DNA of 39,711 bases. Source: a phage. The translations under genes and the position numbers were made by a program. This document shows, in pieces, positions 1,092 to 5,556 of this stretch. The notes beneath the pieces are model-generated. The model did no database searches. It was not told the DNA's origin and saw only the letters and a list, made by a program, of their open reading frames with translations. The DNA lies in the sequence record PZ379184.1; one strand, 5' to 3'. Positions within the stretch are counted from its first letter, which is position 1. The number at the start of each line of letters is the position of its first letter.

Positions 1092-1595
1092 ATGGAACGT
1101 AATGCTAACGCATACTATGAGCTGCTGGCTGCAACCGTTGAGGCATTTATCGAGCGTATTCAGTACGACCACCTGACTCAAGATGACGACTACAGCGCTG
1201 CGCTGCATGAGGTCGTAGACGGTCAGGTTCCACACTATTACCACGAGATTTTTACGGTGATGGCTGCTGATGGTATAGACAACGAGTTCGAAGACTCTGG
1301 GATGATACCTGAAACCAAGGACGTAACGCGTATCCTACAAGCTCGCATCTATGAGGCACTTTATAACGACGTGTCTAATAGCTTGGATGTAGTCTGGTTT
1401 GAGGATGAAGAGGCAGACGAAGAGGATGAATATTGGGTAGTTGACGCTAAAACAGGCGCAATAATTGTGCAAGCTGTAGCTCTTGAGGTCGCTACTGCAT
1501 GTGCCAAGGTCAACTATGTGATAGGTCGCCACCTTCAGGTGGAAGACATCAATGATAACGTAGTGTTTGACCCTGCTGCTGAGGACTGCGAGTGA
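1092..1595 (+). CDS. 0.3: Ocr-like DNA-mimic anti-restriction protein (T7 gp0.3 homolog) with a C-terminal extension of about 45 aa
   Basis: VPHYYHEIFTVMAADGIDNEFEDSGMIPETKDVTRILQARIYEAL aligns closely with recalled T7 Ocr; acidic tail; 167 aa versus 117 aa in T7. Confidence 0.85.
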   Translation: MERNANAYYELLAATVEAFIERIQYDHLTQDDDYSAALHEVVDGQVPHYYHEIFTVMAADGIDNEFEDSGMIPETKDVTRILQARIYEALYNDVSNSLDVVWFEDEEADEEDEYWVVDAKTGAIIVQAVALEVATACAKVNYVIGRHLQVEDINDNVVFDPAAEDCE

Positions 1596-1744
1596 TGGTA
1601 ACTTATGGCCTCTGCCAGCACCACGTCACTAACGCCCGGCTTATGGTCAAGACCGGGCAGTTAAACCACGATGCGACTATGCGTCACCTGAAAGCGGTCT
1701 ACGAGGGCCGCAAGCGTATACACGACAGTTTACACGCTAAGTGA
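1595..1744 (+). CDS. Hypothetical small early protein (49 aa)
   Basis: ATG overlaps the Ocr stop (ATGA coupling); ends just before the next intergenic element. Below the ORF-track cutoff. Confidence 0.4.
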   Translation: MVTYGLCQHHVTNARLMVKTGQLNHDATMRHLKAVYEGRKRIHDSLHAK

Positions 1745-1807
1745 CAGACTACAGGTCATCAATGCTGGTGGCCTGACTGATAGTCATTAACAACTGAGAG
1801 GGAAGAT

Positions 1808-2035
1808 ATGAACACAATCACTGGTGCCATAACCAAAGGTTTTCGAGCAATTTTCGGTGAAACGCAAGAAGTATGCACCAATCATAAATTCGTACTTTCT
1901 TGCGTAGCAGGTGACGAGTTTGACGGGTTCGATAAACTGGTGGTTTGCGACCATTGCGGACAAGAGGCTATCCAACACTCAAACGGTAAATTTGAATTAA
2001 TAGACGATAGCCTTACAGAAGGAGACGGCGAGTAA
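1808..2035 (+). CDS. Hypothetical early protein (75 aa) with cysteine/histidine cluster; possible small zinc-binding protein
   Basis: SD GAGAGGGA before ATG; contains C..H, C..C, CDHC spacing. Confidence 0.6.
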   Translation: MNTITGAITKGFRAIFGETQEVCTNHKFVLSCVAGDEFDGFDKLVVCDHCGQEAIQHSNGKFELIDDSLTEGDGE

Positions 2036-2167
2036 CCTAAATAAACAGGAGAGAACCAAATCATAGCTTTACCATAACACTGACGTGATGGTACTGAGTG
2101 ATAGACGAGAGGTCATCGACTGATAGGTGGCCTCAAAGATTACCACTTAAATTGATAGAGGTTAACT

Positions 2168-2257
2168 ATGAGTGTTGGACATTGGGTCTGCCTAGCGCCA
2201 GTTGTCTGGATGATAGGCTATGGGTTATACGACTGTATTAAACGGAAATCACTATGA
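2168..2257 (+). CDS. Hypothetical small hydrophobic peptide (29 aa)
   Basis: SD AGAGG before ATG 2168; hydrophobic core WVCLAPVVWMIGYGLY; stop overlaps the next ATG. Confidence 0.35.
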   Translation: MSVGHWVCLAPVVWMIGYGLYDCIKRKSL

Positions 2258-2451
2258 GTATCGAACTATTGATAGCCATAGGCTATGGACTTATCGCCTA
2301 CATGCTGATGAGAGACATCAACAAGGCAAGTAAAGTCTACAGATTCAACTATGTACGTCGGGGCCGCTGGACTGTACGTCAACCTAACGGACGATTCCTG
2401 CGCAATTTAGCGAACGTCTGGGATATAGCAACTCTTGGGAGCAAACTGTAA
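2254..2451 (+). CDS. Hypothetical early protein (65 aa), N-terminal transmembrane helix and basic C-terminus
   Basis: ORF coupled to neighbours by ATGA/TAATG overlaps. Confidence 0.55.
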   Translation: MSIELLIAIGYGLIAYMLMRDINKASKVYRFNYVRRGRWTVRQPNGRFLRNLANVWDIATLGSKL

Positions 2452-2777
2452 TGAACAAGTCATACGGGATTAATCTGGTACACTCTATGGACGCAGAAAT
2501 GAACATGTTAAGCCTACTGGCTACCGGGTATCGTCACGGAACGTCAAGTCACTCCGCACGTCAACAGCAGGAGCGGGACCGGGTACTGCAAGCAAGACTC
2601 CGGGCTGAGGGCCATAAGTCCGAACTGATGTGTCTGGCGTATGGTGGACGACCAATCACCGACGATGGTAAACTTCTGGTATCAGGCTGGAAGGCGATAG
2701 ACCAACGGTCAACCATCAAGCACACGACTCATGGTGACTTCAGTCATCTCCACGCTAACCCGCTGATATGCAAGTAA
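2451..2777 (+). CDS. Hypothetical early protein (108 aa) at the position of the T7 gp0.7 kinase, unrelated to it
   Basis: ORF immediately before the RNAP gene; far too short for a protein kinase. Confidence 0.55.
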   Translation: MNKSYGINLVHSMDAEMNMLSLLATGYRHGTSSHSARQQQERDRVLQARLRAEGHKSELMCLAYGGRPITDDGKLLVSGWKAIDQRSTIKHTTHGDFSHLHANPLICK

Positions 2778-2874: not shown

Positions 2875-5556
2875 ATGAGCGTCATCTCTATTGATAAACA
2901 CGACTTCTCTGATGTGTCGAACGCCATTGAGCCGTTTAACCTGCTGGCCGACCACTACGGGCAAGACCTTGCAGTCAAACAGCTTCAGCTTGAGCATGAG
3001 GCATATACAGAAGGCGAGCGACGTTTCATCAAGAACCTTGAGCGCCAGACCGAGCGCGGGGAACTGGCAGACAATCAGGTCGCCAAGCCTTTGATGCAGA
3101 CTCTGGTCCCTAAGATTGCGCAAGCCGTCAGGGAGTGGCACGAAGGCCTAGACGGGAAGCTGTCAACCTCGCGTCCTAGCGTAGCGTTCACCATGTTGAG
3201 CACTGAAGAGAAGGCCGTAAAGGACCGCTCTATGCGCATCCCCTGTGAGTCCGCTGCGGTTATCATACTGAAGGTCATACTCTCCAAGCTGGTCAAGCCT
3301 GAAGGGATACCGATTACACCGATGGCCTCCGCGATAGGTCGCACACTTGAGGACGAAATCCGCTTCGGTCGCATCCGTGACAAAGAGAAGGAGCACTTCA
3401 AGAAGGCGATAGCTGAGAACCTGAACAAGCGAGCTGGGGCATCCTACAAGAAAGCATACATGCAAGCGGTCGAGGCGTCCATGCTGGAGCAAGGCCAACT
3501 GGAAGATGCATGGGGGACTTGGAGTCCTACAGAGGCTGTCCACGTTGGCATCAAGATGCTCGAGATTGTCATCCAGTCAACACAACTGGTCGAGCTTAAG
3601 CGGTACGGTGCTGGTAATGCAGCGGCTGACGTAGAGATGGCCCACCTGTCAGACTTCTGGGTCAAGAAGATGGCACAACGAGGATTCAGCCTTGCGGGTA
3701 TCGCTCCAGTCTACCAGCCTTGCGTCGTTCCACCTAAGCCGTGGACTGGTGTCGTAGGTGGTGGGTACTGGGCCAAAGGTCGCAGACCGTTACCATTGAT
3801 TCGCTTAGGGTCTAAGTCTGCGGTAGCACGTTATGAAGACGTATACATGCCTGAAGTCTATGACGCTGTGAACATCATTCAGAATACACCTTGGAAAGTT
3901 AACAAGAAGGTATTGGACGTGGTGAACATGGTCGAGAAGCTGAACAACACGCCTATTGATGACATCCCTCAGTTGGAACCGCTGAAGCCTGAGGACTATG
4001 CTGGTGAAACCGAGGAGGAACTCAAGGCATGGAAGAAGGCTGCTGCTGGTATCTATCGCCGCGAGAAGGCCAGACAGTCACGCAGATTGTCCATGAGTTT
4101 CATCGTATCACAGGCCAACAAGTTCTCACAGTTTAAGGCCATCTGGTTCCCGTACAACATGGATTGGCGAGGTCGTGTCTACGCTGTCCCGATGTTCAAC
4201 CCTCAGGGTAACGACATGCAGAAGGGTCTACTGACTCTGGCGGTCGGAAAGCCTATCGGGGCGGATGGTTTCAAATGGCTTAAAGTCCACACCGCCAACT
4301 GCGCGGGTGTCGATAAGGTAACCTTTGAGGAGCGTATCAAATGGGTGGAAGACAATCACGAGAACATTCTGGCAGCAGCCAAATCACCGATGGACAGCAT
4401 CGAGTGGTGGGGGAGTATGGACAGCCCCTTCTGCTTCCTAGCGGCTTGCTTCGAGTATTCTGGGGTGATGAACCATGGCTTGACCTACAATTGCTCACTT
4501 CCGATTGCCTTCGACGGCTCGTGTTCGGGGATTCAGCACTTCAGCGCGATGCTGAGGGACCACGTAGGCGGACATGCAGTGAACTTAACGCCGTCTGGTC
4601 AGGTGCAGGACATCTACCGTATAGTCTCAGACCGTGTGTCAGACCAGTTGAAAGAGCTATTACTGAGCGGTACGGACGACGAGCTGGTGACCGTAGAGGA
4701 CAAGAAGACTGGGGAAATCAGCGAACGCCTGAAGCTTGGGACCAAGAGTCTTGCGCGTCAGTGGCTGCAATTCGGTATGTCTCGCTCGGTCACTAAGCGC
4801 TCGGTCATGACTCTGGCCTACGGGTCGAAAGAGTATGGGTTCGCCGACCAAGTGTTCGAAGACACCGTGATGCCAGCGATTGACTCCGGTAAGGGAGCAA
4901 TGTTCACCGAGCCAAGCCAAGCGTCTCGCTTCATGGCTAAGATGATTTGGGAAGCTGTGAGTGTGACAGTAGTTGCTGCGGTTGACGCGATGAAGTGGCT
5001 TCAAGGTGCCGCCAAGCTGCTGGCTGCTGAAGTGAAGGACAAGAAGACTGGTGAAATCCTGAAGCCATGCCTTCCGGTACACTGGGTCACACCTGATGGG
5101 TTCCCGGTCTGGCAGGAATACCGCAAGAAGGATACCACTCGTCTGAACCTGATGTTCTTAGGGTCCTTCAACCTTCAACCTACGGTCAACAAAGGTACGA
5201 AGAAAGAGCTGGACAAGCACAAGCAGGAGTCAGGCATTAGCCCGAACTTCGTCCACTCACAAGATGGTAGCCACCTCCGCAAGACTGTAGTCCACACTCA
5301 CCGAAAGTATGGCGTGATGTCATTCGCAGTGATTCACGATAGCTTCGGGACCATCCCGGCTGACGCTGAGTATCTGTTCCGTGGCGTCCGTGAGACGATG
5401 GTAGAGACTTACCGCGATAACGATGTGCTGCTTGACTTCTACGAGCAGTTTGAATACCAGCTTCATGAAAGTCAGCGCGACAAGTTGCCTGAGCTTCCGA
5501 AGAAAGGTAAACTGAATATCGAAGACATCTTGTCTTCAGACTTTGCATTCGCTTAA
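2875..5556 (+). CDS. 1: DNA-directed RNA polymerase, single subunit (T7 gp1 homolog, 893 aa)
   Basis: Collinear similarity to recalled T7 RNAP (FSDxxxxIEPFNLLADHYG, CVVPPKPWTG, WFPYNMDWRGRVYAV, HDSFGT, C-terminal SDFAFA). Confidence 0.97.
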   Translation: MSVISIDKHDFSDVSNAIEPFNLLADHYGQDLAVKQLQLEHEAYTEGERRFIKNLERQTERGELADNQVAKPLMQTLVPKIAQAVREWHEGLDGKLSTSRPSVAFTMLSTEEKAVKDRSMRIPCESAAVIILKVILSKLVKPEGIPITPMASAIGRTLEDEIRFGRIRDKEKEHFKKAIAENLNKRAGASYKKAYMQAVEASMLEQGQLEDAWGTWSPTEAVHVGIKMLEIVIQSTQLVELKRYGAGNAAADVEMAHLSDFWVKKMAQRGFSLAGIAPVYQPCVVPPKPWTGVVGGGYWAKGRRPLPLIRLGSKSAVARYEDVYMPEVYDAVNIIQNTPWKVNKKVLDVVNMVEKLNNTPIDDIPQLEPLKPEDYAGETEEELKAWKKAAAGIYRREKARQSRRLSMSFIVSQANKFSQFKAIWFPYNMDWRGRVYAVPMFNPQGNDMQKGLLTLAVGKPIGADGFKWLKVHTANCAGVDKVTFEERIKWVEDNHENILAAAKSPMDSIEWWGSMDSPFCFLAACFEYSGVMNHGLTYNCSLPIAFDGSCSGIQHFSAMLRDHVGGHAVNLTPSGQVQDIYRIVSDRVSDQLKELLLSGTDDELVTVEDKKTGEISERLKLGTKSLARQWLQFGMSRSVTKRSVMTLAYGSKEYGFADQVFEDTVMPAIDSGKGAMFTEPSQASRFMAKMIWEAVSVTVVAAVDAMKWLQGAAKLLAAEVKDKKTGEILKPCLPVHWVTPDGFPVWQEYRKKDTTRLNLMFLGSFNLQPTVNKGTKKELDKHKQESGISPNFVHSQDGSHLRKTVVHTHRKYGVMSFAVIHDSFGTIPADAEYLFRGVRETMVETYRDNDVLLDFYEQFEYQLHESQRDKLPELPKKGKLNIEDILSSDFAFA

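Follow-up and report, generated by a model that had tools for sequence, protein, structure and literature searches.

Introduction

In phage T7 the interval between ocr (gene 0.3) and the RNA polymerase gene (gene 1) carries genes 0.4, 0.5 and 0.6 and the gene for gp0.7, a kinase of 359 amino acids (aa). The product of gene 0.4 is said to have been described as an inhibitor of FtsZ by Kiro et al. in 2013. Phage K1F has a block of small genes at this place, named gp0.35, gp0.37 and gp0.38 in its annotation; the K1F record contains no gene 0.7, and the K1F genome paper reportedly says the same. In this work we describe the corresponding interval, positions 1595–2777, of a 39,711-nucleotide (nt) stretch of phage DNA (sequence record PZ379184.1), the whole of which we call the window. 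All features given below lie on its plus strand.

An earlier note on this DNA, which listed the T7 genes correctly, had read the interval as an early region that lacks the kinase and carries five uncharacterised small genes instead. Five open reading frames (ORFs), of 49, 75, 29, 65 and 108 aa, do fill positions 1595–2777, with coordinates confirmed in the ORF list, and the kinase is indeed absent. The layout, on the other hand, is not unusual, as it is the standard K1F-type region and is found in more than 200 deposited phage genomes. The whole is best explained as the early (class I) operon of accessory genes that is usual in Kayfunaviruses of the Ocr type, and we put the probability of this reading at roughly 0.7. 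Such a block is ordinary for K1F-like phages. What is added here is the assignment of the 49-aa gene to gp0.4, together with a pattern of conserved and changed residues, the assignment of the 65-aa gene to T3 gp0.6, and the transfer of the 75-aa gene between phage families.

An early region of the K1F type

The first 3 kb of the window are 95–98% identical at the nucleotide level to LM33_P1 and about 20 other genomes. LM33_P1 (about 98% nucleotide identity) and the others all belong to the genus Kayfunavirus (K1F-like, Studiervirinae). The block is bounded on the left by ocr (1092–1595), a long-form gene 0.3 homologue of 167 aa (Pfam ocr 5.2e-28, phrog_2568 2e-51), and on the right by a phage promoter and gene 1 (2875–5556). 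The latter is an ORF for a T7-type RNA polymerase of 893 aa, annotated as RNA polymerase in all relatives.

We retrieved 27 related early regions and located the orthologues in each, which with the window gives 28 mapped Kayfunavirus-type loci. All 28 carry the 108-aa gene. The gene for the 65-aa protein occurs in 27 of them, that for the 49-aa protein in 22 and that for the 29-aa peptide in 17, while the 75-aa gene is found in three and a kinase gene in six. The left end also varies, with Ocr in 17 loci, a 174-aa protein in five and a T3-type S-adenosylmethionine (SAM) hydrolase in six.

The earlier note had reported translational coupling in the block. This is borne out at three junctions, where stop and start codons overlap: ocr and the 49-aa gene (TGATG, 1593–1597), the 29- and 65-aa genes (ATGA), and the 65- and 108-aa genes (TAATG). 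It does not extend to the 75-aa ORF, which stands alone behind its own Shine–Dalgarno sequence.

Coding status of the five reading frames

Are such short frames genes at all? Short ORFs often arise by chance, and 6.5 kb contain 96 of at least 20 aa, so the presence of an ORF is in itself uninformative and coding status was therefore tested by conservation. We used pooled Nei–Gojobori estimates of the ratio of nonsynonymous to synonymous substitution rates (dN/dS), comparing the annotated frame with the two other frames. In frame, the ratio is 0.27 for the 49-aa gene, 0.15 for the 29-aa gene, 0.36 for the 65-aa gene and 0.25 for the core of the 108-aa gene, while the other frames of these genes give about 0.8–2.0. 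For the 75-aa gene, measured against its siphovirus homologue, it is 0.05. The 29-aa ORF is exactly 29 codons long in 17 of the 28 loci, with amino-acid identity down to 55%, and it keeps both its ATGA overlap and a GAGG Shine–Dalgarno sequence 6–9 nt upstream. Because of the low in-frame ratios and this fixed length, ribosome-binding sequence and overlap, we judge all five ORFs to be real genes under purifying selection.

It is extremely improbable that the 29- and 49-aa ORFs are chance frames in leader or spacer RNA. One might think so from the frequency of short ORFs, from the omission of both from the original LM33_P1 annotation, and from the 29-aa ORF having no family in Pfam, PHROGs or NCBIfam. 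Against this, their in-frame ratios of 0.15 and 0.27 compare with more than 0.78 out of frame, the 29-codon length is constant across 17 loci at 55–86% identity, Shine–Dalgarno sequences and stop/start overlaps are kept, and profile comparison links the 49-aa ORF to a homologue that has been characterised.

Scans of all five proteins against Pfam-A and NCBIfam gave no match, and peptide strings from four of the five were not found in the supplements of accessory-gene screening papers. The description of the genes as uncharacterised is accurate in that for none of them is a function known from experiments in these phages; it is too broad in that the 49- and 65-aa ORFs are related to T7 and T3 early genes. 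Early host takeover or anti-defence is a sensible functional class for the five genes, and any biochemical activity named below is one that we infer.

A diverged gp0.4 homologue

The interval was thought to differ from T7 at the level of gene 0.4, and this contrast does not hold. The 49-aa ORF (1595–1744, with an ATG start) belongs to the K1F gp0.35 family (phrog_5058) and is homologous to T7 gp0.4. The two proteins are 39% identical over 41 aa by blastp, and the profile matches are reciprocal: the 49-aa protein matches phrog_5058 at 4e-28 and phrog_7202 at 2.2e-5, whereas T7 gp0.4 matches phrog_7202 at 5e-33 and phrog_5058 at 9e-5. Aligning the 25-sequence window family with a 10-sequence gp0.4 alignment in hhalign gives a probability of 94.7% (E 5.6e-8, 46 columns), and KpV289 orf03, from a Przondovirus, forms a link between the families (45% identity, E 2e-14). 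Furthermore, the 49-aa gene and T7 gene 0.4 both begin at the last base of the ocr/0.3 stop codon. From this agreement of sequence and profile comparisons we conclude that the 49-aa gene is a diverged gp0.4 homologue. All 88 homologues of the 49-aa protein carry the precomputed family PF26807.1.

The residue pattern is informative in light of a 2026 study of gp0.4 (PMC13423816). That study lists substitutions that abolish FtsZ inhibition and toxicity (at V15, V22, W28, M32, L35 and Y39) and the residues contacted by the immune sensor CapRel-Ebc (A12, T14, L16, S19 and R23). At the first set the 49-aa protein has V, V, H, M, L and Y, that is five of six identical (hypergeometric P = 0.023); at the second it has Q, H, T, R and K, none of five identical. 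The diverged gp0.4 may be an escape variant, in which FtsZ inhibition is kept and the surface sensed by CapRel-type systems is remodelled. With most FtsZ contacts conserved and its CapRel-Ebc surface changed, the protein is a natural test case for the question of whether phages can evade immune sensing and still retain the function of an effector.

This homology also bears on a published open question. K1F infection results in filamentous, multi-ring cells with mislocalised FtsZ (PMC9372555, 2022), and the same study states that K1F 'lacks the 0.4 genes', BLAST having detected no similarity, and calls the inhibitor 'currently unknown'. The K1F copy of the 49-aa gene, YP_338091 (gp0.35 in another annotation), falls in the same family (phrog_5058, 1.2e-24) and is therefore the obvious candidate for the K1F inhibitor of FtsZ. 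We hypothesize that the 49-aa protein most likely docks on the synergy-loop face of FtsZ and prevents the Z ring from assembling, which would explain the mislocalisation and filamentation seen in K1F infection. K1F gp0.35 and its counterpart in the window thus give the question a named gene.

Could the protein descend from gp0.4 and no longer target FtsZ, the division block of K1F-type phages being due to another protein such as the membrane pair or the 108-aa product? Identity to T7 gp0.4 is just 35–39%, the essential W28 has become a nearly invariant histidine, the family has a one-residue insertion in the inter-helix turn relative to gp0.4, and small phage proteins often change target. We nevertheless think such retargeting unlikely, as five of the six toxicity-essential residues are identical while surface residues outside the FtsZ contact have diverged. 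In addition, the 49-aa family is under purifying selection, and K1F does inhibit FtsZ, with no other known FtsZ inhibitor reported in it (PMC9372555).

A predicted membrane pair and the T3 gene 0.6 family

The supposed contrast with gene 0.6 also fails. The 65-aa ORF (2254–2451; K1F gp0.37) falls in phrog_2385, the T3 gene 0.6 family, with a score of 7.2e-30 compared with 9.1e-30 for T3 gp0.6 and 1.2e-28 for KpV289 orf05. All three proteins are 65 aa long, and the window protein is 42% identical to T3 gp0.6 over 60 aa (blastp, E 4e-9). On these matches the 65-aa protein belongs to the T3 gene 0.6 family, which occurs in 656 phage records, mostly Klebsiella Przondoviruses and Kayfunaviruses. 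A literature search found no functional study of this family. The T7 gp0.6 protein, an MreB inhibitor, is a separate matter: neither the 65-aa nor the 108-aa ORF has a blastp match to it, and T7 gp0.6A/B fall in phrog_8393, not in phrog_2385 or phrog_7066.

Two hydrophobic N-termini had been predicted in the block, and both are found. That of the 65-aa protein is clear (Kyte–Doolittle 1.98, residues 3–19), whereas that of the 29-aa product (2168–2257), a predicted single-helix membrane peptide, is borderline but clear (1.47). The C-terminal part of the 65-aa protein is basic (isoelectric point, pI, 11.0). The 29-aa gene always abuts the 65-aa gene, and the slot it occupies takes interchangeable hydrophobic peptides, of 29 aa, 34 aa (LM33_P1) or 55 aa (K1F), or sometimes both a 55-aa and a 29-aa peptide. 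We propose that the two products, joined by translational coupling, would act together as small proteins of the inner membrane with an interchangeable upstream partner, the basic C-terminal domain of the 65-aa protein probably engaging a conserved host target in the envelope or near the membrane.

A hairpin resembling the T7 R0.5 site lies just 5′ of the 29-aa gene, which therefore stands at the position of T7 gene 0.5. As a gp0.5 homologue the 29-aa ORF was rejected, since it has no blastp match at E ≤10 and the two fall in different PHROGs.

The kinase as an optional module

The absence of the kinase is confirmed by four tests, including a sensitive profile search of the whole window, all of which were negative. 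T7 gp0.7 has no tblastn match in the window, none of the five ORFs matches a kinase family in PHROGs, where genuine kinases score 1e-114 to 1e-169, and a gp0.7-family hidden Markov model (HMM) built from 18 sequences, run on the 635 six-frame ORFs of the entire window, reaches a best E of only 2.8. The lack of a Pfam match says nothing on this point, because a true gp0.7-type kinase of 244 aa goes undetected by Pfam-A too. The idea that the 108-aa protein is a remnant of the shut-off domain of gp0.7 was also considered and rejected (hhalign with a gp0.7 alignment of 17 sequences: probability 0.13%, E 0.45).

Do the small genes take the place of the kinase, as the earlier note proposed? The genes do occupy the interval of T7 gp0.7, the 108-aa gene sits exactly at the T7 position of the 3′ end of gene 0.7, and a kinase-less phage might need alternatives to an enzyme whose relatives counteract Dnd, Qat and other defences and act as broad anti-defence factors (PMC12345140). 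The reading of the five genes as functional gp0.7 substitutes, jointly providing host shut-off and anti-defence, is however contradicted by co-occurrence and we consider it very unlikely. In each of the six sampled loci with a kinase the 65- and 108-aa genes are present as well, the 49-aa family stands alongside a kinase in T7 and in Przondovirus KpV289, and the 108-aa family has no profile similarity to gp0.7, the shut-off domain included. The arrangement is matched in phage B1, where the kinase is followed by 53-, 64- and 108-aa genes and then the polymerase gene (PMC12785254). Given that the 65- and 108-aa genes stand beside the kinase in the same loci, the small genes make up the background, constant or mosaic, of early regions in the genus. 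The kinase, by contrast, is a module that may be present or absent; the window phage, K1F and LM33_P1 do not carry it, and the small genes do not compensate for it.

The 244-aa gp0.7-type kinase (phrog_15752, 4.5e-114) is found in exactly the six loci with a SAM hydrolase and never with Ocr. In this sample of the genus, then, the kinase travels with the SAM-hydrolase-type and not the Ocr-type early region. Because gp0.7-type kinases counter Dnd, Qat and other defences, their absence matters for host range, and the segregation of the kinase bears on which therapeutic Kayfunaviruses, LM33_P1 being one, overcome these and related defences.

A gene shared across phage families and a gene of the genus

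The 75-aa gene (1808–2035; phrog_32657) is a rare accessory gene encoding an acidic protein (pI 4.5, with 14 Asp/Glu against 5 Lys/Arg). The Cys/His cluster reported in it is real: C23, H26, C32, C47 and C50 are invariant in six family members. Their spacing, in a C-x2-H ... C-x2-C knuckle arrangement, suggests a zinc ribbon, and the protein is probably zinc-ribbon-like and zinc-binding. The AlphaFold2 model has a four-strand core at low confidence (predicted local distance difference test, pLDDT, 54.7). A fold search with this low-confidence model came back empty, and a profile search of the family against the PDB gave no match.

The gene occurs in 57 phage records, which are LM33_P1-like Kayfunaviruses and 44–45 kb siphophages of the genus Kagunavirus, and in 5.8 billion sequences the family is represented by just five clusters of full-length proteins. 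The Kagunavirus homologues are 90–93% identical in amino acids. At the nucleotide level, window positions 1788–2061 are 87% identical over 275 bp to Escherichia phage vB_EcoS_XY1, and the match includes the ribosome-binding site (RBS). In XY1 the sequence 3′ of the 75-aa gene is AACAGGAGAGAAACAAATG, the start of gp59; in the window, positions 2044–2062 read AACAGGAGAGAACCAAATC, in which the ATG has become ATC. The cassette thus consists of an RBS, the 75-aa gene and, 3′ of its stop codon, the vestigial RBS of the next Kagunavirus gene. As this RBS remains in the window with its ATG lost, the comparison points to a Kagunavirus-like genome as donor and the podovirus as recipient. This is a clean case of an early gene crossing unrelated phage families, and the transfer makes the 75-aa gene a priority candidate for anti-defence screens. 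Recently acquired, the gene most likely acts on a host or defence factor specific to E. coli.

In Kagunavirus the 75-aa gene is the first of the early genes; in XY1 it comes first behind a sigma-70 promoter, and a DicA-like repressor gene is oriented divergently from it. This position at an early promoter, and the fact that zinc ribbons often bind nucleic acids, would fit a small transcription or DNA-binding regulator taken from the Kagunavirus early switch and carried in the podovirus as inert baggage. We find this account quite unlikely, given that a pI of 4.5 is unusual for a DNA binder, that a dN/dS of 0.05 across two phage families indicates very strong purifying selection, and that in the podovirus the gene comes with an RBS and an RNase III-type hairpin of its own, which argues for a retained function.

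The 108-aa gene (2451–2777; K1F gp0.38 family, phrog_7066) is found in every one of the 28 loci and in 224 deposited genomes, all of them Kayfunavirus-like. N-termini in this family are variable, giving products of 83 to 139 aa, and the conserved core is the C-terminal 83 aa or so, with the invariant motifs DDGKLL and HTTxGDFSHL. An exhaustive HMMER profile search of 1.84 billion representative proteins returned 14 matches, small and phage-type bar one, a 1594-aa protein aligned only at a low-complexity RQQQERDR stretch. These 14 matches provide no link to a larger or characterised family, and profile searches of the PDB, Pfam and NCBIfam gave no match. The AlphaFold2 model, built from a 42-sequence alignment, is unusable (pLDDT 55.8). 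By these searches the 108-aa protein is a genus-specific orphan, encoded by a signature gene of the genus beside gene 1. We suggest that it probably binds a host protein via the invariant C-terminal HTTxGDFSHL motif.

One further idea is that the 75-aa protein is a new anti-defence protein directed against an E. coli-specific system and the 108-aa protein a genus-specific host-takeover factor with an undescribed fold and target. It is prompted by the movement of the former between phage families and the fixed place of the latter beside the polymerase gene, and we regard it as possible but doubtful.

Predicted processing sites and promoters

Several hairpins in the early region are of the RNase III type, with fold z-scores from -2.4 to -4.2. 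Three of them (690–740, 1010–1060 and 1747–1785) have the motif CCTGACTGATAGTCAyTAAC in common and align with the R0.3 sites of T7 and T3. The hairpin at 1747–1785 (-18.5 kcal/mol, z = -2.4) is an extra copy of this type 5′ of the 75-aa gene; it aligns with the hairpin that precedes ocr as well as with the annotated T7 and T3 R0.3 sites, and is found only in genomes with the 75-aa cassette. A further hairpin at 2095–2149 consists of a lower stem, an internal loop and an upper stem, lies within a fold of z = -3.1, and aligns with the annotated T3 R0.5 site and the T7 R0.5 region. It is thus a predicted RNase III processing site homologous to R0.5. In relatives that lack the 75-aa cassette the R0.5 site comes immediately after the gp0.4-like gene. 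Between the 108-aa gene and gene 1 there is no convincing hairpin (z = -0.8).

In our model, host RNA polymerase would transcribe the block from upstream early promoters immediately after DNA entry, and the hairpins would cut the transcript into four parts: the 84-aa gene, ocr with the gp0.4-like gene, the 75-aa gene, and the 29-, 65- and 108-aa genes together. Scans for sigma-70 promoters and terminators gave no excess over the shuffled expectation and added nothing inside the interval.

The right boundary of the block is a full-consensus promoter for the phage RNA polymerase (2783–2805, CTTAACTATCACTATAGG, with +1 at about 2800), which matches eight other promoter cores in the window. Its position 5′ of gene 1 is conserved in relatives, where variants co-vary by phage subgroup. 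What T7 and T3 have at that spot is limited to a promoter of E. coli type plus an RNase III site. A promoter placed 5′ of gene 1 would let the polymerase amplify its own transcription.

Further elements of the early mosaic

The Ocr of the window is 47% identical to T7 gp0.3, but is 167 aa long compared with 117 aa in T7, and the Pfam ocr domain covers residues 8–94 only. Ocr in relatives is either a short form of 110–114 aa or a long form of 166–176 aa, and so the C-terminal extension of about 50 aa (residues ~115–167) is an optional extra module. One 129-aa protein from a 1867-bp contig (P0094, 'hypothetical protein ML277_005058 [Escherichia coli]') joins the N-terminal ~105 residues of Ocr to the last 24 of the 75-aa protein. 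It is a natural deletion chimera, in which nothing is left of the gp0.4-like gene or of the extension of Ocr, and the greater part of the 75-aa gene is gone.

In five of the 28 loci (L026-L029 and L042; for example L026, 1168–1692) Ocr is replaced by the 174-aa protein, phrog_11084, which overlaps the gp0.4-like gene just as Ocr does. By eye, its N-terminal GKGAFTKCY and C-terminal LILVDCFF look vaguely kinase-like; a Pfam scan was negative. In four of the 28 loci (L029, L037, L038 and L041; for example L029, 2176–2598) a protein of 140–144 aa is inserted between the 65- and 108-aa genes, a junction that is a recurrent insertion point. Judged by eye from its Cys/His motifs, this protein is a putative HNH-type homing endonuclease. 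Finally, 15 loci (for example L005, 1536–1661) have a Cys-containing protein of 41–59 aa (MYQITYSSEQAFYDGCYEMM...) after the gp0.4-like gene. It is absent from the window and is a further element of the early-region mosaic.

Weighing the reading

A number of points weigh against the view of the interval as a standard accessory operon with the functions proposed above. A search of the literature found no experiment on any of the five proteins. The hairpins resemble the RNase III sites of T7 and T3, and their cleavage is a prediction from fold and alignment. The W28 of gp0.4, essential for FtsZ binding, corresponds to the nearly invariant H25, and the target could have shifted. The linkage of kinase and SAM hydrolase holds in this sample and comes from 28 loci only. 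Lastly, the 65-aa gene is altered in two or more natural isolates, being frameshifted in vB_EcoP-101118UKE1 (L003, 1861–2074) and fused in frame with the 29-aa gene in another locus (L026, 2458–2601), giving a 47-aa product, and neither LM33_P1 nor K1F has the 29-aa gene. Because of these losses the membrane pair appears dispensable in some settings or isolates.

Comparison with known systems

The 49-aa protein is like T7 gp0.4 in its size of about 50 aa, in its place directly 3′ of ocr with a stop/start overlap, and in the invariants YGL...LK..Y. It differs in the change of W28 to histidine, the one-residue insertion, the CapRel-Ebc contacts, all of which are changed, and in its separate PHROG (5058 and not 7202). 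With T7 gene 0.5, the 29-aa gene has in common a small hydrophobic product, a position directly 3′ of the R0.5 site and a 4-nt overlap with the next gene. The T7 product is 47 aa long and has no detectable sequence similarity to the 29-aa peptide, and the analogy is one of position only.

In the case of the 65-aa protein the likeness is one of sequence. T3 gp0.6 and its Przondovirus homologues have the same N-terminal transmembrane helix, basic C-terminal domain and motif R-F-T-V-R-x-x-N-G-R-F, and are encoded by an early gene located 5′ of gene 0.7 or gene 1. In T3 and KpV289, however, this gene lies 5′ of the kinase, directly so in KpV289, whereas in the window it is 5′ of the 108-aa gene, and identity is about 40%. 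The gp0.7 kinases of T7 and T3 and the 244-aa Kayfunavirus kinase occupy the same neighbourhood, from the small early genes to gene 1, and have no counterpart in the window.

The 75-aa cassette recalls the accessory genes (morons) that pass between unrelated phage families, with its patchy spread, its near-identical DNA in a podovirus and a siphovirus genus, and its own expression signals. It differs from these in that no known anti-defence or host-takeover family matches the 75-aa protein.

The block as a whole is most like that of K1F and other Kayfunaviruses. K1F has a 55-aa membrane peptide in place of the window's 75-aa cassette and 29-aa peptide, and the reading frame of its gp0.38 is shorter than that of the window. 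The order is otherwise the same, namely ocr, gp0.35, gp0.37 ('0.6' in NC_007456), gp0.38, the phage promoter and gene 1, and both early regions are kinase-less.

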